NCBI GenBank assembly: GCA_965263065.1 | Contig: CBDHGH010000003.1 | Location: 1,796,537 to 1,860,536, forward strand | Direction of reading: 5' to 3' | Length of the DNA stretch: 64,000 nt | DNA from: Dehalococcoidia bacterium | GTDB taxonomy: Bacteria > Chloroflexota > Dehalococcoidia > Bin125 | Part shown: positions 5,618 to 29,513 of the stretch, piece by piece | Position numbering within the stretch: the stretch's first letter is position 1 | Layout: every line of letters starts with the position of its first letter | Notes under the pieces: model-generated | Seen by the model: only the letters and a program-made list of their open reading frames with translations | Told to the model about the DNA's origin: nothing | The model's database searches: none | Translations under genes and position numbers: made by a program

Positions 5618-6280
5618 CTAGACGCCGCCGCCCGTCGCGCGCGAGATGTAGGTCAGCGCCCGCGCGTACTGCGCCTGCGTGATCAGATCCCGCGCGACCA
5701 GGTAGTTGAGCAGGCTCTCGATGGTCAGCAGCGGATGCAGCGTGACGCCCGCCTCGGCCAGCCGCGCCTGCCCCCCGGCCTGCCGGTCGATCAGCACGAT
5801 CGCGTCGTGCACCATCAGCCCCGCCGAGCGCAGCGTCTCGGCCGTCTCGACCACGCTGCTGCCGCCCGTGATCAGGTCGTCGACCAGCAACACCGTCTGG
5901 CCCGGAAAGTACGCCCCCTCGATCTCCTCGTAGCGATCGTCGGCCCGCGCCCGCGGGTGCACGTAGATCAGCGGCACGTCCGACGTCAGCGAGAACGCCG
6001 TCGCCAGGTGCAGCCCGCCCAGCGGCACCCCCGCCACCAGCTCGAATGGCGACAGGTGCGGGTGCAGCATCCCGGTCAGGGTGCGCGTCTCGTCGGTCAG
6101 CAGCTCGCCGATGCGCCGCAGCGTGCGCGGGTTGCCGATCAGCCGGCGCGGGTTGACGTATATCGGCGAGTCGAGCGTCGCGCCCAGGTTGAAGCTGCCG
6201 AACTGCACCGCGGCCGAGTCCCACAGGGACCGCGCCAGCCACAGATTGCCGGGGTCGGGGTCGTGCGCACGCAACGACAT
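5618..6280 (-). CDS. pyrE: orotate phosphoribosyltransferase
   Basis: PRPP-binding motif VLLVDDLITGGSS and overall OPRTase layout. Confidence 0.85.
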   Translation of the reverse strand: MSLRAHDPDPGNLWLARSLWDSAAVQFGSFNLGATLDSPIYVNPRRLIGNPRTLRRIGELLTDETRTLTGMLHPHLSPFELVAGVPLGGLHLATAFSLTSDVPLIYVHPRARADDRYEEIEGAYFPGQTVLLVDDLITGGSSVVETAETLRSAGLMVHDAIVLIDRQAGGQARLAEAGVTLHPLLTIESLLNYLVARDLITQAQYARALTYISRATGGGV

Positions 6281-19711: not shown

Positions 19712-20478
19712 GAGCCCGGCTCCCCGTGCTTCGGCAGGCCATGCATCGACTGATAGTTGGTGTCGTGCGGCAGCGCGCCGGTCTTGGCGTCGCGCGGCAG
19801 CCCGCTGACGCTCAGGTAGGGCGGGAAGAGCGATTCCAGCTCGCGACGGATCGGGTCGCCCTCGGGCAGCATCGTCGAGAAGTCACCGTCCGGCTCCGGC
19901 CGCCGGCGCTTGCCCAGCAGCCCCTCCTCCTTCATGACGTCCTGCAGCAGCATCAGCCCCGACAGCAGCGACTCCGGTCGCGGCGGGCAGCCCGGCACGT
20001 AGACATCGACCGGCACGACGTTGTTGACACCCGGCAGCGTGCTGTAGCCGTGCGCGAACGGCCCCCCGATGTTGCTGCACGAGCCCATCGAGATGACCCA
20101 CTTGGGCTCCGCCATCTGCAGGTAGATGCGGCGCACCGCCGGCGCCATCTTCCAGGTCACCGTGCCCGCCACGATCATCAGGTCGGCCTGGCGCGGCGAG
20201 GCCCGGAACACCTCGGCCCCGAAGCGTGCGATGTCGTAGCGCGCGTTCGCCGTCGCGATCATCTCGATCGCGCAGCACGCCAGCCCGAACATCGCCGGCC
20301 ACAGCGACGAGCGCCGCGCCCACGTCAGCACGCTGTCCACCTTTGTGATCAGCAACTGCTGGCGCAGGTCCGACTCAATGTCCGTCACGCCGCCGGCCGC
20401 GCCTGGGGGCGGCTCGACGTTCAGCACCGGGATCGTCTCGCGATCGGCCACGCGTCCTCCCCTTGTGAAGTCGGGCAC
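19708..20478 (-). CDS. nuoB: NADH-quinone oxidoreductase subunit B-like (NuoB/hydrogenase small-subunit fold) with about 80-aa C-terminal extension
   Basis: [26 protein letters not shown] and VPGCPPRPE motifs. Overlaps nuoI by 4 nt. Confidence 0.85.
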
Positions 20479-20529
20479 GATGATATCAGCGCCCCCAGGT
20501 GGGCGATACCGTCGCGCCCGCGATCCCCC

Positions 20530-21693
20530 TCAGCCGATGGGCGACAGCGCCCGCAGCCGCTCGATCGCCTCGGGCAGCACCAGGCCGACGCGGTCGACCT
20601 GCGCCTGCGTGGTGCCCTGCCCCAGTGTCAGCCGCAGCGCCGAGTGCGCCAGGTCGGAATCGACGCCCATCGCCGTCAGCACGTGGCTGGGCTCGCTCGA
20701 CCCCGTCGTGCAGGCCGAGCCGGAGCTCGCCGCGACGCCCTCCATGTCGAGGTGCAGCAGGATGCTCTCGCCCTCGACCCCGGCGAAGCAAACGCTCAGG
20801 TTGTTGGGCAGCCGGCGCGCCATGTCGCGCGGGCCGTTCAGCGACACGTGCTCGACCCCCTCGCGCAGATGCCGCCACAGCCGATCGCGCAGGCCGCCCA
20901 CGTGCGCGTTGCGCGACGCCATCTCCGCGTGCGCCAGATCGAGCGCCGTCGCCAGCGCGACCGCCCCCGCGACGTTCTCCGTCCCCGCCCGGCGCTCGCC
21001 CTCCTGCCCGCCGCCGATGATCAGCGGCGCAAACGGCGTCCGATGCCGCACGTAAAGGGCGCCCGTGCCCTTCGGCCCGTAGATCTTGTGCGCTGTCAGC
21101 GACAGCAGGTCGACGCCCAGCGCGTCGGGCCGGATGTCGATCGCGCCCGCCGCCTGCACGGCGTCGGTGTGCACCAGCGTGCGCGGGTTGCGCGCCTTCA
21201 CCGCCGCCGCGATCGCCGCGATCGGCTGCACCGTGCCCACCTCATTATTGGCCGCCATGACCGTGAGCAGCGCCGTGTCGTCGCGGACGGCGTCGGCCGC
21301 GACCGCCGGGTCGACGAAGCCCTCGCCATCGACGGGCAGGATCGTGACCTCCCAGCCCTCCCGCTCAAGCGCCTCCAGCGGCTCCAGCACCGCGTGGTGC
21401 TCGATCGCCGACGTGATCATGTGCCGCCCCGTCGATGCCGCCGCGACGCCGCGGATGGCCGCGTTGTCGGCCTCGGTCCCGCCCGACGTGAAGACGACCT
21501 CCCCCGGGCGTGCAGCCCAGCCGTCCCGCCACGACGTCGCGCGCCTCGTCGAGCGCCTGCCGGGCGCGCTGCGCCTCGCGGTAGATGCCCGACGGGTTGC
21601 CCCAGCCCTCGCGCAGGATCGGCAGCATCGCCGCGATCACGCGCGGGTCCACGGGCGTCGTCGCCGCATGATCGAGGTACACCCGTTCGGACA
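20530..21693 (-). pseudogene. second cysteine desulfurase (IscS/NifS family) interrupted by a +1 frameshift in a G5/C5 homopolymer
   Basis: The N-terminal frame MSERVYLDHAATTPVDPRVIAA...LGCTPG (ORF 21365..21940) and the C-terminal frame MITSAIEHHAVL...SSGSACT (ORF 20530..21420) are both NifS-like. They join if one G is removed from the CCCGGGGGAGG run at about 21501-21505, where PGEVVFTSGGTE is expected. Confidence 0.6.
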
Positions 21694-21860
21694 TTGGCGC
21701 CTCATCTCCCTCGACGGCCGGGGCCGTCCCATGCAGGATATCCGCTTCGCCCCCACCCGGTCGCCCCGCGCCCCGCGACGCTCCATATCCTCGCCGATAG
21801 ACCCCTCGCGCCCCCGCTCGATATACTGCCCGCAACCGCCACATTCGAGAAGGATCCGCC

Positions 21861-22247
21861 ATGACGACGATGAACATCCCCGCCCTGCTGAACGTTAGCG
21901 ACCTCGCCGCCGAGAAGGCCGTCGGCCTGCTCAAGGACAAGGGCTTCGCCGACGGCGCCCTGCGCGTCTTCGTCGTCGGCGGCGGCTGCAGCGGCTACCA
22001 GTACGGCATGGCCCTCGCCACCGAGGCCGAGCCCGGCGACCAGGTGATCGAGACCGGCGGCGTCCGCTTCCTCGTCGACCCCGACAGCGCGCCGCTGCTG
22101 ATCGGCGCCCACGTCGACTACGTGGACGACATCATGAAGCAGGGCTTCAGCATCACCAACCCCAACGCCGCCAAGAGCTGCGCCTGCGGCACCTCGTTCG
22201 ACACCGCCGACAGCGCCGGCGCGTCGCAGGCCCGCTCCTGCGTCTGA
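21861..22247 (+). CDS. A-type iron-sulfur cluster carrier (IscA/ErpA/HesB family)
   Basis: Conserved cysteines (VVGGGCSGYQYG, CACGTSF). RBS GAGAAGGA upstream. Divergent from the frameshifted cysteine desulfurase. Confidence 0.85.
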   Translation: MTTMNIPALLNVSDLAAEKAVGLLKDKGFADGALRVFVVGGGCSGYQYGMALATEAEPGDQVIETGGVRFLVDPDSAPLLIGAHVDYVDDIMKQGFSITNPNAAKSCACGTSFDTADSAGASQARSCV

Positions 22248-22268
22248 GGCGCGCTGCCGCCAACTCGG

Positions 22269-22670
22269 TCAGTCCTCCGCGACAACCGTGAAGGGGACGG
22301 TGGCGACGAGTTCGTAGCCCACGTGGAGACAGAACTCGTAGTCACCGAATTCATCAATCGCGAGGTCCGGGATCCGGCAGATGAAGCCTGCGATATCGCG
22401 GTCGCCCGGGGACGGTCGCGTGAACTGAGCCGTCGTGCGCGTTATGGCGAATGTGTCATCGGGGCCGAGGAGCCGGAACTCGACATCCTTCCGCCCCGCC
22501 TCGTCGACCGAGTACGTGACCCCGATCACGAGGGTCATTGTTGGGATCACCGGGCTCCGTCGGGTGACCGGAATGGTCCTGATCGGGAAGCCCTCGATCG
22601 TCAGTCGGTCGCTGGCGGCTGCGTCCTCCGGCGTGACGGCTGCGCAGAGGAAGGCGAATTGCGATTCCAT
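22269..22670 (-). CDS. hypothetical protein (133 aa), lower-GC islet
   Basis: Coding-like composition, no recognisable family. Its first 20 codons overlap out of frame with the upstream 59-aa repeat-module ORF, so the true start may be the internal ATG near 22538. Confidence 0.4.
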   Translation of the reverse strand: MESQFAFLCAAVTPEDAAASDRLTIEGFPIRTIPVTRRSPVIPTMTLVIGVTYSVDEAGRKDVEFRLLGPDDTFAITRTTAQFTRPSPGDRDIAGFICRIPDLAIDEFGDYEFCLHVGYELVATVPFTVVAED

Positions 22671-22790
22671 TCCTCACGCTCCTCGGGGCTCAGAATCCGG
22701 AGAGTGACGGTCTTGAACTCCATCCCGCCATATGTCGCGGTCGATTCGGCCGGCTCGGACGGCTGAGAGTCAGTGGTCATGGCTGCCGGG
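22610..22790 (-). CDS. small repeat-module protein (59 aa; MTTDSQPSEPAES...EEREEWNRN...PPATD)
   Basis: Below the ORF-track size cutoff. Same N-terminus (MTTDSQPSE), central EEREEW motif and C-terminus (PPATD*) as the modules of the adjacent 107-aa protein. Confidence 0.35.
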
Positions 22791-22844
22791 CTCCTATTCG
22801 TGGTCCCATCCTACACGGAAGCAGCAGGGCAAATGCGGCACGCG

Positions 22845-23168
22845 TCAGTCGGTCGCCGGCGGCGGCTCATTCCGATCTGACTCGTCCCCAGGGGAAGGCG
22901 GATTGCGATCCCATTCCTCGCGCTCCGCGGGGGTGAATAGCCGGACCGGGCCGATCCTCACGAACTTGCCGAAGCCGAACTTCGCGGTCGATTTGGACTG
23001 CTCGGGTGGCGGAGAGTCGGTGGTCGGCGGCAAGGAAGACGGATTGCGGTCCAGTTCCTCGCGCTCCGCGGGGGTGAATAGCCGGACCGGGCCGACCCTC
23101 ACGAACCGGCCGTAGCCGAACTTCGCGGTCGAGTCGGGCTGCTCGGACGGCTGAGAGTCGGTGGTCAT
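22845..23168 (-). CDS. tandem-repeat small protein (107 aa; two copies of a 47-aa module)
   Basis: MTTDSQPSEQPDSTAKFGYGRFVRVGPVRLFTPAEREELDRNP, then STAKFGFGKFVRIGPVRLFTPAEREEWDRNP, then ...PPATD*. The underlying DNA has about 145-bp tandem repeats spanning 22870-23170. Confidence 0.45.
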   Translation of the reverse strand: MTTDSQPSEQPDSTAKFGYGRFVRVGPVRLFTPAEREELDRNPSSLPPTTDSPPPEQSKSTAKFGFGKFVRIGPVRLFTPAEREEWDRNPPSPGDESDRNEPPPATD

Positions 23169-23198
23169 GACAGCCGGACTCCTGTTCCTGGCGCCAGC

Positions 23199-23714
23199 CT
23201 ACACCGAAGAAGCAGCGTTCGGCGCGGCGACGCGCTGCAGCGCCAGCATCGTCTCGATGTCGCGCTCGTGCAGCGAGACGAGCACGTCCTCGACGCTGAT
23301 CGTGCCCCGGAAGGGGTGCGTCCCCCGCCGCGCCAGCGACCGGTCCGACAGCCCCCACAGCAGCCCGCACGTCTCGTCGCGCGACTGCCCGTAGATGCGC
23401 GCCAGCTGCCGGACCTCGACCGCCTCCGCGCCCGTCGCCAGCCACTCCGCCGGGTGCAGCCTCAGCTCCTCGCGACCGCGCAGCAGCTGCTCCAGATGCC
23501 AGCCGCCGGCCCGCTCCTGCACGGCCAGCTCCCACGCGATCTCGAGCACCTCCGCCGCCGCCCCCGCCGGCCGATCGCCCCGCGCCGCGACGAACAGCGC
23601 CTCCTGCACCTCGCCGCCGCCCTCGCGCAGCGCCTTCAGCAGCCAACTCGCTCGATCCACCGTCGCGCCTCCCCTGCCGCGCAGGCTCCCGGCGGAGCGC
23701 GACCATTCTGACAC
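23199..23714 (-). CDS. hypothetical protein (171 aa)
   Basis: Preferred over the antisense Arg/Pro-rich ORF 23268..23711. Weak resemblance in PAEWLATGAEAVEVRQLARIYG to Xre/ParS-type antitoxin C-domains. Not assignable. Confidence 0.4.
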   Translation of the reverse strand: MSEWSRSAGSLRGRGGATVDRASWLLKALREGGGEVQEALFVAARGDRPAGAAAEVLEIAWELAVQERAGGWHLEQLLRGREELRLHPAEWLATGAEAVEVRQLARIYGQSRDETCGLLWGLSDRSLARRGTHPFRGTISVEDVLVSLHERDIETMLALQRVAAPNAASSV

Positions 23715-23782
23715 ACCCGCCGCTCGCCCGTTGCCGCCGCCCGCTACGATGCCGCTCGCAAGCAGACGACAGGAGGCCGCGC

Positions 23783-23992
23783 GTGCGCACCGAACTCTGG
23801 GAGTCCGACCCCTTCACCGAGAAGCGCCAATCCCTCATCGACACCCTCGACAGCGACTACCGCTGGCAGAAGGGCGACGTCATCGTCGACAACCGCAAGG
23901 GCGCGCACGACCGCTTCCGTGTGATCGACGTGCAGGTGCAGCTGCACGACGACGGCCTGCGGCGCACCATCCTCGCGCTGCGGCTCGACTAG
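23783..23992 (+). CDS. hypothetical small protein (69 aa)
   Basis: Balanced amino-acid composition (K/D/E/W present), unlike the GC-artefact ORFs. Its stop overlaps the GTG start of the following UDG gene (taGTG). Confidence 0.45.
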   Translation: MRTELWESDPFTEKRQSLIDTLDSDYRWQKGDVIVDNRKGAHDRFRVIDVQVQLHDDGLRRTILALRLD

Positions 23993-24612
23993 TGCCCGGC
24001 CCGCCCGCCCGGCTGGCCGCGCTCGAGCGCCGCGCCAAGGCCTGTCGGCGCTGCCCCAAGGTCGCCGCGGGCAGCGCCGTGATCGGGCCGCGCAACGGCC
24101 CCGTCCCCGCCGATCTGCTGTTCGTCGCCGAGGCGCCCGGCTACCTGGGGGCGCTGCGCACCGGCGTCCCGCTGACCAGCGACCGCTCGGGGAAGAACTT
24201 CCGCGCCTACTGCGCCGACGCCGGCATCGACGCCGGGGCCGCCTTCATCTGCAACGCCGTGCTCTGCCACCCGCGCGCGACCGACGGGCGCAACCGCACG
24301 CCGCGCGTCTCCGAGGTCGCCGCCTGCAACGACTTCCTGGCCGAGATCGTCGCACTCGCCGACCCGCTGGTCGTCGTGGCGCTGGGGCGCGTCGCCCTCG
24401 ACGCGCTGGCCCGCATCGCGCCCCACGGCCTGCGCCTCGGCCCCGGCGACGTCGGCCGCCCCGTGGCCTGGCGGGGGCGGCGGCTCGTCGCGCTCTACCA
24501 TCCCTCGGGCCAGACCCTGGGCCGCCGCTCCCGCGCCCAGCAGGTCGACGACTACCGCGCCGTCGGCCGCGCCCTCAGCGCCGCCCGCGCCGCCCGCGCC
24601 GCCCGCGACTGA
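23992..24612 (+). CDS. uracil-DNA glycosylase family 4-like protein
   Basis: CRRCPKV...GPVPADLLFVAEAPG (family-4 GEAPG-type motif) and FICNAVLCHP. Start taken as GTG at 23992, in frame with ORF 23395..24612, whose upstream part is spurious. Confidence 0.75.
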   Translation: MPGPPARLAALERRAKACRRCPKVAAGSAVIGPRNGPVPADLLFVAEAPGYLGALRTGVPLTSDRSGKNFRAYCADAGIDAGAAFICNAVLCHPRATDGRNRTPRVSEVAACNDFLAEIVALADPLVVVALGRVALDALARIAPHGLRLGPGDVGRPVAWRGRRLVALYHPSGQTLGRRSRAQQVDDYRAVGRALSAARAARAARD

Positions 24613-25646: not shown

Positions 25647-28600
25647 TCAGGGCGCGTTGGGGGGCTCGAAGAGGCTCCGGGCGATGGCGATGACGGCGTC
25701 GACGTTGCTTCCACGAAGGCTTTTTGTTTTCCCAAGAATCGCGTACTCGGCCTCGGTGGACGCGTCGTAGATCCAGACCGTCACCGGGAATAAGTCACTA
25801 TGGTTCGGACCTGACGGGCTGTACGCCACTCGCGCCGGCCGCCCGGCGATGACCCTCGTCTCGTACACGCCCCGGCCGTTCCGCCAGGATGCCTCTCGCG
25901 GGTGGCCTCGGTAGTCCGCGTAGTAGCCAAAAACTGTGAAGGCGCTCCCGCCTCTTTCTGTTGCGAAGTCCGCCCAGTACCCGTAGGCGGGACCACTGAC
26001 GTCGCCGCTGACCGCCCATGCGAACGTCCAGCCTGCGGGGAGCGCCGGGTCACGCCAGTAGGGAAGCTGTCGCGCCTCCGCGAGATTCGTGGTGTAGGCA
26101 GGGTTCGCGTAGGAGTCGCCCGGGAGCGGGTACGTGTCGGGCTCTTCCACCGCGCCGGTCCAACCTGCGGGGACGAGTTGGTATGGACCGTGGCGCACGG
26201 GCGAGGTCAGGCTCGGGCCGCCCAGGTCGGGCAGCGGGCCGAACTGCAGGCTGGCCGTCGCGGTCGGGGAGATGGCGCCGCTGCAGCCTGTGAAGGCGTA
26301 GGTCATCCAGGCCACGGCCAGCAGCTTGCGCGGGGGGTCGCCGGCCGGGTCGTCCTTGACGTCGGTCACCGTGTAGCGCACGAAGCAATCGCTGGCTTGG
26401 CGCCACTCGAAAAGGTCGCCCGCCTCCACGAGGTCCAAGAGGTCCGCCTGCGAGGCACCGGCACTGTCGTGCTTGTGGATCACGAGGCCGGTCGTGCTGC
26501 CGTCGCGCAGGCCCTCGTAGGTCGTGATCATCGTGGTGAGGTCGTCGGGGTCGGTGAGGAAGGCGTAGTCGCCGTCGTCTGTGACGCTCCCGGTCGTCGT
26601 GGGGGCGCCGTAGGTCAGGGTCGTCGAGGGCAGATCGCAGTCCGCCAGGCCGAGCGCGGCGAAGTCGTTGGAGCGCATGCCCGCCAACTCACGCGGCAGG
26701 CAGCCGGTGAAGCGGTTGTCCGCCAAATACACGATCAGGTGGGGCGGATTCCTCAGTTCCACCGGGATCGGCCCGCTCAACTGATTCCCGCGCAGGTCCA
26801 GCACCACCAGCCCCGCAAGGTTCCCCAGCGCCGCCGGGATCGGCCCGCTCAACTGATTCCCGCCCAGGTCCAGCACCTCCAGCGCCGCGAGGTTCCCCAG
26901 CGCCGCCGGGATCGGCCCGCTCAACTGATTCCCGCCCAGGTCCAGCACCTCCAGCGCCGCGAGGTTCCCCAGTTCGGGTGGAATCGCGCCCGTCAGGCGG
27001 TTCTCGTGGAGCGCCAGCCGCTGCAACTGCGCGAGGTTCCCCAACTCCGGCGGGATCGGCCCCGTCAGCCGGTTGCCGTCAAGCTGCAAGTACGTCAGGC
27101 GCGCCAGGTCGCCCAACTCGGGCGGGATCGCACCCGTCAGCCGGTTCTCGCCGAGCGTTAGGGACCCCAACTGCGCGAGGTTGCCCAACTCGGGCGGGAT
27201 CGGCCCCGTCAGCCGGTTGGCGGAGAGCGTCAGGTACTTCAACTGCGCGAGGTTCCCCAACTCCGGCGGGATCGCGCCCCACAGCAGGTTGCCGTGGAGG
27301 TACAGGACCTCCAGGCGCGCGAGGGCGCCCAGCTCCGGCGGGATTGGCCCCGTCAGCCGGTTGTCGTAGAGCCTCAGGGTTTTCAGGCGCGTGAGGGCGC
27401 CCAACTCCGGCGGGATCGGCCCCATCAGCCGGTTCTCGTGGAGCGCCAGCCGCTGCAACTGCGCTAGGTTCCCCAACTCCGATGGGATCGCACCCGTCAG
27501 CCGGTTCTCGCGGAGCACAAGGGACTCCAACTGCGCGAGGTTGCCCAACTCGGGCGGGATCGCGCCCGTCAGTTGGTTGTTGGGGAGGTGCAGGCTCCCC
27601 AGGCGCGCGAGGGCGCCCAATTCCGGCGGGATCGAGCCCGTCAGGCGGTTCCCGTTGAGGTTCAGGACCCCCAGGCGCGCGAGGGCGCCCAACTCCCGCG
27701 GGATCGCGCCCGTCAGCCGGTTGCCGTGCAGCCACAGCCGCTGCAACTGCGCGAGGTTGCCCAACTCCGGCGGGATCGGCCCCGTCAGCCGGTTGTTGTT
27801 GAGCAACAGGCTCTCCAGGCGCGCGAGGGCGCCCAACTCCCGCGGGATCGCGCCCGTCAGCCGGTTGTTGTACAGCCGCAGGATCCTCAACTGCGCGAGG
27901 TTGCCCAACTCCGGCGGGATCGGCCCCGTCAGCCCGTTCCCGTTGAGCCACAACCACTGCAACCGCGCGAGGGCGCCCAACGCCGGCGGGATTGTGCCCG
28001 TCAGCGCGTGCCCCTCCAGGTCCAACGCCGTCACGTGCGGCGGCGTCCCGCCCACGGTGACCCCGTCCCAGGCCGTGATCCCCCGGTCCGCGCTCCAGTC
28101 GAGCGCCGCCGTGCCGCGCAGCCTGCCCCTCGCCGCCAGCAGGATCGCGCAGTCGGCGACCAAGCCGGGGTTATTCGCCGCGTCGGGCACGGCCGCCCCG
28201 GCCGCGCAGGGCCCGGGCGGCGGCGGCGCCGGCGCACCGCCGGCCGCGTCGCGGCCCGGCTGGATGTTCTCCGGCGTCCAGGTGAAGGTGCGAGTCCCCC
28301 GCGTGGTGATCGGCCCGCTGGTGCAGCCGGTATAGGCGTAGGAGTAGACCTGAATCGTCAGCAGCGTGCGCGGCGGATCGCCCGCCGGGTCGGCGTGGAC
28401 TTCATCGACGTGGTAACGCACCCAGCAGTCGGCAGCCTCGCGCCACTCCACCAGGTCGCCCGCCTCCACCTGGGCGTAGAAGACCGCCTGCGAGGCGCCG
28501 GAGATGTCGTTCTGGTGCAGCACCAAGCCGATGCGGGTACCGGCGCGCAGCCCCTCGTAGGTGGTGATGGCGCTGGTGAGGTCGTCGGGGTCGGTGAGGA

Positions 28601-29513
28601 AGGCGTAGTCGCCATCGGTCGGGACACTGTCCGTCGTGATGGGGGGACCGTAGGTCAGGCTCTCGGACCCCAGCGGACAGGAAGCCAGGCCGAGCTGCGC
28701 CACGTCGTTGCGCTCCACCTGGGCGAGGGCGCGCAGCAGGCAGCCCGTGAGGTCGTTCTGGGAGAGAGAGAGTTCGCTTAGGGGGAGATCGGCCAGCCCG
28801 GGCGGGATCGCGCCCGTCAACTGGTTCTGCTGGAGTTGCAGGATCCTCAACTGCGCGAGGTTTCCCAGCTCCGGTGGGATCGCGCCCGTCAGCCGGTTCC
28901 AAGCGAAGTCCAGGGTCCCCAGGCGTGCGAGGTTGCCCAACTCGGCCGGGATCGCGCCCGTCAGCCGGTTCACGAACAGCGATAGCACCTCCAACCGCGC
29001 GAGGTTGCCCAACGCTGGCGGGATCCGCCCGCTGAGCTGGTTGTACCCCAGGTGCAACCGCCGCAATTGACTGAGGTCGCCCAGCGCGGCCGGGATCGTG
29101 CCCGTCAGCGCGTGCCCCTCCAGGCGCAACTCCGTCACGCGCGGCGGCGTCCCGCGCAGCGTGTCCTTCGCCGCCAGCAGGATCGCGCAGTCGGCGACCA
29201 GGCCGGGGTTGTTCGCCGCGTCGGGCACGGCCGCCCCGGTCGCGCAGGGGCCGGGCGGCGGCTCCAGAGGGACGCCGGGGGCCGCGCAGATCCGCCAGCC
29301 GACGCCGATCTCGAAGCAGGTGACCGCCGGCTCCGTGCCCTGCGCCGCCGCCGGCGCGGCGCCGGACGGCAGCAGGATCGCCGCGGCCACGCCGATCAGC
29401 AGCAGGGCCGCGAGCAGCGGCGTCACAACGACGGCGAAGCGCCTGCGGTCGGGCATCTCATCTCCGGGAACGACCGCCGCGGCGCGAAGGTTCCCGCCCG
29501 CGGCCAACCTCAC
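25647..29513 (-). CDS. large secreted/membrane-anchored leucine-rich-repeat protein (1288 aa, plant-specific-type LRRs)
   Basis: N-terminal signal/TM. Two LRR blocks (about 7 and about 20 units of LxxLxLxxNxLTGxIPPELGNLAxL), each preceded by a Cys-containing cap (CATGAAVPDAANNPGLVADCAILLAA) and followed by a duplicated roughly 170-aa domain. A unique roughly 280-aa C-terminal domain follows. Confidence 0.85.
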   Translation of the reverse strand: MRLAAGGNLRAAAVVPGDEMPDRRRFAVVVTPLLAALLLIGVAAAILLPSGAAPAAAQGTEPAVTCFEIGVGWRICAAPGVPLEPPPGPCATGAAVPDAANNPGLVADCAILLAAKDTLRGTPPRVTELRLEGHALTGTIPAALGDLSQLRRLHLGYNQLSGRIPPALGNLARLEVLSLFVNRLTGAIPAELGNLARLGTLDFAWNRLTGAIPPELGNLAQLRILQLQQNQLTGAIPPGLADLPLSELSLSQNDLTGCLLRALAQVERNDVAQLGLASCPLGSESLTYGPPITTDSVPTDGDYAFLTDPDDLTSAITTYEGLRAGTRIGLVLHQNDISGASQAVFYAQVEAGDLVEWREAADCWVRYHVDEVHADPAGDPPRTLLTIQVYSYAYTGCTSGPITTRGTRTFTWTPENIQPGRDAAGGAPAPPPPGPCAAGAAVPDAANNPGLVADCAILLAARGRLRGTAALDWSADRGITAWDGVTVGGTPPHVTALDLEGHALTGTIPPALGALARLQWLWLNGNGLTGPIPPELGNLAQLRILRLYNNRLTGAIPRELGALARLESLLLNNNRLTGPIPPELGNLAQLQRLWLHGNRLTGAIPRELGALARLGVLNLNGNRLTGSIPPELGALARLGSLHLPNNQLTGAIPPELGNLAQLESLVLRENRLTGAIPSELGNLAQLQRLALHENRLMGPIPPELGALTRLKTLRLYDNRLTGPIPPELGALARLEVLYLHGNLLWGAIPPELGNLAQLKYLTLSANRLTGPIPPELGNLAQLGSLTLGENRLTGAIPPELGDLARLTYLQLDGNRLTGPIPPELGNLAQLQRLALHENRLTGAIPPELGNLAALEVLDLGGNQLSGPIPAALGNLAALEVLDLGGNQLSGPIPAALGNLAGLVVLDLRGNQLSGPIPVELRNPPHLIVYLADNRFTGCLPRELAGMRSNDFAALGLADCDLPSTTLTYGAPTTTGSVTDDGDYAFLTDPDDLTTMITTYEGLRDGSTTGLVIHKHDSAGASQADLLDLVEAGDLFEWRQASDCFVRYTVTDVKDDPAGDPPRKLLAVAWMTYAFTGCSGAISPTATASLQFGPLPDLGGPSLTSPVRHGPYQLVPAGWTGAVEEPDTYPLPGDSYANPAYTTNLAEARQLPYWRDPALPAGWTFAWAVSGDVSGPAYGYWADFATERGGSAFTVFGYYADYRGHPREASWRNGRGVYETRVIAGRPARVAYSPSGPNHSDLFPVTVWIYDASTEAEYAILGKTKSLRGSNVDAVIAIARSLFEPPNAP

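Follow-up and report, generated by a model that had tools for sequence, protein, structure and literature searches.

A tandemly amplified orphan small-protein gene overlapping a DUF6941 gene at a conserved locus of Dehalococcoidia

In a 64,000-nucleotide (nt) stretch of the genome of a Dehalococcoidia bacterium (contig CBDHGH010000003.1 of assembly GCA_965263065.1, positions 1,796,537 to 1,860,536; henceforth the window) we describe a short islet in which tandemly duplicated small-protein genes lead, on the same strand, into a gene of the DUF6941 family, the last of the small genes overlapping the start of its larger neighbor out of frame. The islet can be read as the variable core of an operon that is inherited vertically and in which an orphan small gene has been partly overprinted on the DUF6941 gene, is co-translated with it and probably encodes its partner, a reading that we consider plausible and put forward tentatively. 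The phenomena involved (overprinted, coupled and tandemly amplified small genes) are known ones, attached here to an uncharacterised domain family.

A first-pass annotation of the window, made by a model from the letters and a list of open reading frames (ORFs), had described two small genes, one of 107 amino acids (aa) with two 47-aa modules and one of 59 aa with a single module, both beginning MTTDSQPSE and finishing with PPATD and a stop. Both ORFs were confirmed, as was the out-of-frame overlap of the 59-aa ORF with a 133-aa ORF. The tandem repeat that the annotation gave as about 145 bp exists, although its period is 141 bp. The features of the islet, numbered from the first letter of the window, are as follows.

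22269-22670, minus strand: DUF6941 gene, 133 aa (ORF list, Pfam PF22091)
22601-22780, minus strand: one-module small-protein gene, 59 aa, last copy of the array (ORF list)
22601-22670, minus strand: 70-nt overlap of the tail of the 59-aa ORF with DUF6941 residues 1-23
22642-22686, minus strand: near-invariant stretch coding PEEREEW, with the DUF6941 Shine-Dalgarno sequence and AUG (DNA alignment)
22781-22844, minus strand: 64-nt spacer 5' of the 59-aa gene (repeat alignment)
22845-23168, minus strand: two-module small-protein gene, 107 aa (ORF list)
22845-22914, minus strand: diverged relic of DUF6941 nt 1-70, forming the tail of the 107-aa gene (repeat alignment)
22893-23025 and 23034-23166, minus strand: copies of the 141-bp tandem repeat within the 107-aa gene (Tandem Repeats Finder)
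23199-23714, minus strand: DinB-like gene, longest ORF 171 aa (ORF list)
23783-23992, plus strand, divergent from the array: 69-aa gene (ORF list)

The 59-aa and 133-aa ORFs share 70 nt, with DUF6941 in the -1 (+2) frame of the small ORF; within the overlap the tail of the small ORF reads NRNSPSSAQPSRRRTQPPATD followed by its stop, and the other frame gives DUF6941 residues 1-23. This arrangement recurs in 10 other distinct loci, namely those with an intact DUF6941 gene and a readable junction, in which the last small ORF begins 110 or 113 nt ahead of the AUG of DUF6941; in eight loci (L004-L008 and L011-L013) the overlapping last copy had been left uncalled by gene callers. A near-invariant stretch, CCnGAGGAGCGyGAGGAATGGAAyCGCAATTCGCCTTCCTyTGC, encodes SPEEREEWNRNSPS in the frame of the small ORF, and in the other frame supplies GAGGAG, an 8-nt spacer, the AUG (22670) and the first residues of DUF6941, MESQFAFLC. 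The Shine-Dalgarno sequence, the AUG and the first 9 DUF6941 codons are invariant or nearly so in the alignment, and the variation within the 70-nt overlap shows no codon periodicity. What is conserved is thus a same-strand overlap with the downstream ribosome-binding site and AUG inside the upstream ORF, from which it follows that ribosomes on the last small ORF must cross the DUF6941 initiation site, and translational coupling of the two genes, positive or negative, is a reasonable inference. The conservation of the PPATD tail, in turn, is largely due to its overlap with the N-terminus of DUF6941.

Scanning for the MTTDSQ start revealed that the loci carry two to three small ORFs, of one or two modules each, the exception being a single locus (L003) with one copy. 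The copies are spaced 248 nt apart, e.g. at 5753, 6001 and 6249 in L008, and carry pieces of both neighboring genes. Ahead of the ATG of each upstream copy lies a relic of the DinB-like C-terminus and its stop (P-A-x-S-V-stop), represented in the window by the spacer at 22781-22844, which holds the last DinB-like codons and the stop (SV-stop), with an AGGAG Shine-Dalgarno sequence 10 nt before the ATG; GTGTAGGATGGGACCAGGAAnAGGAGCCCGGCAGCC-ATG is conserved upstream of the small ORFs in an alignment of 22 copies. At the other end, the tail of each upstream copy retains relic sequence from the start of DUF6941 (~24 codons). Read in the alternative frame, the tail of the 107-aa gene of the window gives MGSQSAFPWGRVRSE and a stop, to be compared with MESQFAFLCAAV... 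of DUF6941, so that the relic frame is broken here; in L004, L009 and L011 the relic is still MESQFAFLCAGVTPE.... These relics show that the duplicated unit ran from the end of the DinB-like gene, whose last ~10 codons and stop belong to it, into DUF6941, and that the array expanded by tandem duplication of a ~248-nt unit reaching to about codon 24 of DUF6941. A TAGGAT motif found 5' of each copy was considered as a promoter and rejected, as it is the relic stop codon of the DinB-like gene. A scan for promoters and terminators found none, and the covariance models of Rfam 15 gave no match at E<=1 on either strand of 22000-24100.

Further changes have taken place within this array. The 107-aa gene contains an additional in-frame duplication of 141 nt starting from codon 2, with the second module beginning TTDSPPPEQ, and relatives of 94-95 aa have a different in-frame internal duplication of 102-105 nt. 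Tandem Repeats Finder scored the former at 22893-23166 (period 141, 1.9 copies, 89% matches, score 450). A repeat search located a third, more diverged copy (22599-22712 against 22843-22956, 75% identity) and a pair (22735-22827 against 23123-23215, 85% identical) that takes in ~47 nt 5' of each ATG. In the whole window there are two occurrences of the start motif ATGACCACCGACTCTCAGCCGTCCGAG and three of the EREEW-coding motif, with zero of either expected from shuffles. The module type STATYGGMEFKTVTL is the last in the window, L001 and L002 and the first in L012, and the type FGFPEYVHLGTVRAL is the first in L004 and the last in L012. Such differing positions of the same module type across genomes indicate recombination within the array. 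Only one disrupted copy was seen, in L010, on a contig with 2.67x coverage.

An open frame is by itself weak evidence of coding here, given that at 67% GC other frames are often open too. The codon-position GC contents (GC1/2/3) are 0.62/0.56/0.83 in the 107-aa gene and 0.56/0.53/0.78 in the non-overlapping part of the 59-aa gene, GC3 being highest in the annotated frame only. Among 15 single-module copies the positional entropy is 0.07/0.06/0.23 over codons 1-10 and 0.07/0.06/0.31 over codons 32-42, variation being mainly at third positions, and the ratio of nonsynonymous to synonymous divergence (pN/pS) is 0.18 over codons 1-10. This concentration of variation at third positions in both conserved motifs indicates that selection acts on the peptide. 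All length changes of the small ORFs are multiples of three, ATG and GTG starts interchange, and in copies with a broken DUF6941 relic frame, such as the 107-aa gene of the window, the small-ORF frame runs through the strongly diverged tail to the same stop. The middle ~20 residues are near neutral, with dN/dS of 1.06 among last copies and 0.64 within module types, values that derive from small counts. From the codon-position, length and frame signals we conclude that the small ORFs are genes that are translated, or were so until very recently.

The proteins they would encode have a simple layout. The N-terminal decapeptide MTTDSQPSEQ and a (S/T)PEEREEWxRN motif are conserved and flank a variable, hydrophobic segment of ~20 residues. 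The genes are real and duplicated, and the conserved leader- and tail-like ends of the initial description, between which the sequence varies, are supported. None contains Cys, and the 107-aa orthologues (P0001-P0003, L001 and L002) are 79-97% identical. Profile searches of Pfam, NCBIfam, PADLOC, PHROGs and the PDB gave no significant match, so that the module does not correspond to a known abundant domain and the label of candidate novel small-protein family given at first pass is upheld; the top PDB profile match, a 16-residue likeness to the C-terminal helix of the Akt PH domain with E ~1, is not evidence. An AlphaFold2 model of the 107-aa protein (mean predicted local distance difference test, pLDDT, 52) has short strands and then a helix over PEEREEW, with no confident fold. 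The small proteins look disordered, or may fold upon binding. A secreted-looking, unrelated protein of 602 aa (P0041) has four repeats of FDPS(T/R)(L/M)(S/T)PxE(R/K)AAW(E/Q)(R/K)NQA that resemble LSPEEREEWNRN of the small proteins; its match to the small-protein profile is marginal (E=4e-4) and may reflect a convergent helix-capping sequence.

The 133-aa protein, at first entered as unknown, is a member of DUF6941 (PF22091, E=6.5e-11, 43.1 bits against a cutoff of 27, profile positions 1-124 of 125), and precomputed PF22091 matches exist for all its full-length relatives. Its length is exactly 133 aa throughout the 14 full-length clusters, the alignment has 40 invariant columns, and the protein combines a conserved scaffold with hypervariable segments and loops. 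AlphaFold2 predicts an eight-stranded beta-sandwich (pLDDT 76.6) in which residues 15-27, the loop coinciding with the small-ORF overlap, have pLDDT below 50 and are therefore taken to be a loop under low constraint. Fold matches of this model in the PDB were weak and generic (UNC119 and RhoGDI, template modelling score, TM, ~0.4). The top match in BFVD (TM 0.66) was a 134-aa uncharacterised protein of Anoxybacillus phage A403 (35864-36268 of MG969427), which is itself a DUF6941 protein (29.3 bits). Its gene lies in the lysogeny module, with a membrane nuclease on one side and the integrase on the other, and has no overlapping small ORF annotated. The surrounding phage segment (33486-36822, L014) codes for a bPH_3+SHOCT protein annotated as tape measure, a membrane-anchored SNase/Excalibur nuclease, a coiled-coil protein and the integrase, and the DUF6941 block looks like a moron or accessory block. 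A literature search found no paper mentioning DUF6941. The subfamily of the window is isolated, in that profile searches returned the same clade only.

To judge by its distribution, the small-protein family is restricted to one narrow uncultured clade of Dehalococcoidia and is vertically inherited. The small protein falls into 16 clusters in a collection of 5.8 billion proteins, and an exhaustive search with a profile hidden Markov model (HMM) gave ~5 true matches among 1.84 billion representatives; the remaining HMM matches (P0035, P0038-P0042) were discarded as repeat proteins, which Pfam ties to unrelated beta-propeller or low-complexity repeats. Close relatives of the DUF6941 protein come from the same small clade, and the named records among the relatives are metagenome-assembled genomes (MAGs) of Dehalococcoidia or Chloroflexota, for which names such as COS3_bin_15 hint at a sponge origin. 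The scanned JGI metagenome contigs and IMG/VR yielded no match, and a tblastn search of phage genomes gave nothing meaningful. The concern that the repeats might be confined to this assembly is removed by their recurrence in separate ENA/NCBI assemblies (L001, L002, L004-L013 and the proteins P0001-P0016). We fetched 13 loci, including L003, in which DUF6941 is replaced. All share the same order: the uracil-DNA glycosylase (UDG) gene and the 69-aa gene run in one direction, and divergent from them come the DinB-like gene, the small ORF or ORFs and DUF6941, then IscA convergent, followed by IscS and NuoB. The co-occurrence in other genomes that the first-pass annotation had suggested checking was found, as the module, the DinB-like gene and DUF6941 stay together in fixed synteny, with the exception of L003. 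Since this order is shared by at least 10 independent Dehalococcoidia or Chloroflexota assemblies, the array occupies a fixed chromosomal locus; it is not an artefact of assembly or a mobile island.

Within this fixed setting the islet diverges fast. In DNA sequence the window and L004 share 94-100% identity in the flanks, against 46-85% from the stop of the DinB-like gene to that of DUF6941, and for this pair the flanking genes have pS 0.076 and pN 0.011, against pS 0.26 and pN 0.20 (0.198) for DUF6941. Over all loci dN/dS rises from 0.07 for IscA through 0.15 for the 69-aa gene, 0.21 for UDG and 0.26 for the DinB-like gene to 0.58 for DUF6941, which is a mosaic of residues 41-70 and 105-133 at 0.2-0.4 and residues 11-45 and 66-105 at 0.85-1.45. 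The raised pS of DUF6941 had suggested ancient balanced alleles, an idea that was dropped as intergenic spacers of the same genomes are as diverged as the DUF6941 synonymous sites and a flank GC content at third codon positions (GC3) of ~0.97 depresses the flank pS. We therefore do not claim positive or balancing selection: the spacers are equally diverged, and the pS of the flanks is probably held down by their extreme GC3. The islet is also richer in AT than its surroundings, as had been noticed at first pass (GC 0.637-0.67 over 22200-23250, against a window mean of 0.72), a dip explained by the lower GC3 of the small ORFs and DUF6941 (0.78-0.84, against 0.93-0.99 in the four nearest neighbors measured, i.e. 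IscA, UDG, the 69-aa gene and the DinB-like gene).

If the reading proposed at the outset is right, the small gene would be a young orphan whose tail was overprinted on the loosely constrained N-terminal loop of an older and widespread gene, DUF6941. The two would be co-transcribed, and ribosomes on the last small ORF, in crossing the DUF6941 start, would couple the production of both proteins from one mRNA. The orphan would then have been amplified by duplication of the unit, intragenic duplication and recombination. Its products may bind the DUF6941 beta-sandwich as partners or modulate it, with an interface formed by the variable, hydrophobic middle of the small protein and the variable DUF6941 loops. 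Overlapping and overprinted gene pairs are classic, from the coat and lysis genes of phage MS2 to many operon junctions. The pair described here resembles overlapping coupled pairs in its same-strand overlap, in the downstream ribosome-binding site and AUG inside the upstream ORF, in the use of a loose part of the older protein and in its conserved position; it differs in the length of the overlap, 70 nt against the usual 1-4 nt, and in that the upstream gene is an orphan that was tandemly amplified together with the overlap segment. As for DUF6941, the protein of the window agrees with the family in its full-profile score, its predicted beta-sandwich and the similar fold of the phage member (TM 0.66), whereas its subfamily is the only one seen here with an overlapping small ORF.

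Were this the correct reading, the locus would be a clean natural case of gene birth by overprinting, followed by tandem amplification with pieces of the neighboring genes attached. The overlapping copy is systematically missed by automatic gene callers. In a housekeeping region that is otherwise conserved, DUF6941 and its putative small partner evolve fastest of all, which makes them a defined pair for experiments that could reveal a first function of DUF6941. The reach is limited by the confinement of the family to one narrow clade.

Several points weigh against it. The partner role is a guess drawn from adjacency, overlap and shared variability, and the structure prediction for the small protein, at pLDDT 52, offers no confident fold. 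The dN/dS of the middle segment (~1.0 across copies, 0.64 within types) is equally compatible with a peptide whose middle is irrelevant, and the upstream copies could have been kept open by gene conversion instead of selection. A possible hairpin over the DUF6941 AUG (predicted -15.6 to -18.6 kcal/mol) is no better than shuffles (z-scores +0.1 to -1.4) and shows no covariation by RNAalifold. Finally, in L003 (2485-3200 of MAG COS3_bin_15) DUF6941 is cut after ~19-22 codons, directly after the stop of an intact 60-aa small ORF, and is replaced by two overlapping, unrelated minus-strand ORFs of 169 aa and 112 aa without a Pfam match; this case, a single genome, argues that the small protein is not strictly dependent on DUF6941.

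The rival that fares best, a lesser possibility in our estimation, is that the small ORF is only a leader (an upstream ORF) whose translation would make the ribosome-binding site of DUF6941 accessible or block it, with a functionless peptide and upstream copies that are relics. The DUF6941 Shine-Dalgarno sequence and AUG do lie inside the small ORF, in DNA that is nearly invariant, a hairpin over the AUG can be drawn, and the middle of the peptide has a dN/dS of ~1. Against this explanation, both conserved motifs vary chiefly at synonymous third positions, which argues for selection on the peptide, and in no assembly have free-standing copies with no downstream gene of their own lost their start, frame or stop, not even those with a broken relic frame. 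Moreover, L003 keeps its small ORF without DUF6941, and the hairpin is not significant.

A bolder reading, and an unlikely one, would make the small proteins and DUF6941 a two-component recognition or conflict module (e.g. anti-phage or symbiont-host) of an undescribed kind, with small-protein cassettes, bounded by MTTDSQPSEQ and PEEREEW, that recombination would amplify and shuffle and that would co-diversify with the hypervariable loops of the beta-sandwich. It would provide a first functional handle for DUF6941, which is also present in the lysogeny module of a temperate phage.

In another reading, which we regard as rather improbable, DUF6941 would be the effector of a toxin-antitoxin-like or other conflict module, with the small proteins serving to neutralise it or as specificity cassettes, and diversification driven by an arms race with phage or host. 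As in type II toxin-antitoxin operons, a small upstream gene overlaps a larger downstream gene of ~130 aa within one operon, and the two diverge fast, being the most divergent genes of a conserved region (between the window and L004, pN 0.198 for DUF6941 against 0.011 for the flank). Module types are shuffled among array positions, and a DUF6941 member sits beside an integrase in the lysogeny module of phage A403. However, searches of PADLOC, Pfam and NCBIfam detected no toxin, antitoxin or defence domain for either protein and no DNA-binding fold was seen, the overlap measures 70 nt, the upstream gene is present in two to three copies, and the locus is not mobile but fixed in housekeeping synteny and was not found in viral contigs (IMG/VR). 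The raised pS is about that of the intergenic spacers, so positive selection is not demonstrated, and the phage context is a single case. The initial suggestion of a polymorphic toxin/immunity cassette is likewise not supported. The orphan modules of contact-dependent growth inhibition (CDI) and Rhs systems are orphan cassettes of this kind, and they too have conserved flanks around a variable centre, varying copy number and variants shuffled between positions. Unlike them, the array has no toxin, trafficking domain or immunity family, its ~248-nt units are far smaller, it is inherited vertically in fixed synteny, and the gene upstream of it is a DinB-like gene of 153-171 aa. The statement of the first-pass annotation that no maturation enzyme or toxin domain is recognisable agrees with our Pfam scans of the neighboring genes.

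It is also improbable, to our mind, that the islet is a weakly constrained and decaying accessory region whose open frames are a by-product of high GC and gene conversion. The dN/dS of 0.58 for DUF6941 and ~1 for the middle of the small ORF, the reduced GC3, the frequently open other frames and the loss of DUF6941 in L003 would all fit such decay. Against it stand the constant 133-aa length of DUF6941 with its 40 invariant columns and a scaffold pN/pS of 0.2-0.4, the purifying selection on the head and the EREEW motif of the small ORF, and the finding of just one disrupted copy (that of L010, at 2.67x coverage).

Multi-copy or multi-core precursors are typical of arrays for ribosomally synthesised and post-translationally modified peptides (RiPPs), for example cyanobactins and graspetides. 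The tandem small paralogues of the islet, some with two modules, in which a conserved N-terminal part precedes a variable segment, resemble such an array, of which the first-pass annotation had found them reminiscent. The conserved part would be the leader and the variable one the core; the processing enzymes would be encoded elsewhere, or the enzyme-like DinB-fold gene, conserved and directly upstream, would serve. We consider this very unlikely. Pfam scans of ~11.7-34.7 kb of the window and precomputed Pfam matches for nine fetched loci showed only housekeeping, leucine-rich-repeat (LRR) and transport genes, with no known maturase, leader peptidase or other protease, or exporter within ~10 kb of the array in the window or the syntenic loci. 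Besides, the small proteins lack Cys, their variable part is central, being followed by a conserved motif and a tail, the last copy overlaps a non-enzymatic beta-sandwich gene, and the DinB_2 match of the upstream gene is below threshold.

An assembly artefact (a collapsed or expanded repeat), a programmed -1 frameshift fusion or the target of a diversity-generating retroelement can be dismissed as extremely unlikely: at least one 1-nt indel, in IscS, does set the window apart from its relatives and DUF6941 is in the -1 frame of the small ORF, but the same array occurs in at least 10 independent assemblies, no X XXY YYZ heptamer exists in the overlap in 9 loci, in the window, L001 and L002 the DUF6941 frame has a stop two codons ahead of the AUG, and Pfam aligns DUF6941 from its own Met. 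As to the retroelement, the repeat mismatches (14 in the 141-bp repeat, and 29) are spread over all base classes and are not adenine-specific, and no reverse-transcriptase domain turned up among the neighboring genes scanned.

The first-pass annotation had placed two unknown genes, of 171 aa and 69 aa, ahead of the array, which holds for the former only. The 171-aa ORF, which runs in the same direction as the array and is well conserved, is the first gene of the putative operon and would encode a helical protein. Its probable true start is a GTG at 23660, giving a protein of 153 aa, as the alignment of orthologues (82-94% identical) begins (M/V)DRASWLL. It is weakly DinB-like: Pfam DinB_2 (PF12867) scores 16.3 bits against a cutoff of 24.8, three of eight orthologues match at E ~0.01, and a PDB profile search gave a weak match to the DinB-family structure 2rd9 (E=1.1). 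The 69-aa gene, conserved and with no family match, lies on the plus strand and ends in TAGTG, overlapping the GTG start of UDG (23992-24612, plus strand, a family-4/5-type uracil-DNA glycosylase), and therefore belongs to the divergent UDG operon. This one-base overlap is called in all related loci and suggests that the 69-aa gene and UDG are a coupled pair.

Within ~10 kb on either side of the islet are genes for HisG, Lon-N, VIT1, Nuo subunits, IscS, IscA, UDG, a membrane protein, a 1288-aa LRR protein, an esterase and a binding protein. IscS is split in the window into two ORFs (20530-21420 and 21365-21940) by one extra base in a GCCCGGGGG run (21500-21515, at ~21508); it is a single ORF of 387 aa in L001 and L004, and the split may be an assembly indel or a recent pseudogene. 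Some relatives have a gene with an NYN domain between IscS and NuoB (8638-9225 in L008, 8233-8856 in L001), which is absent from the corresponding 20478-20530 of the window. On the other side, the LRR protein (25647-29513, minus strand) has an internally duplicated architecture. At its position, beyond a conserved membrane protein of 301-306 aa, relatives encode proteins of 728-973 aa without strong Pfam matches, SBP_bac_5 or APH, making this a second variable spot in the region.

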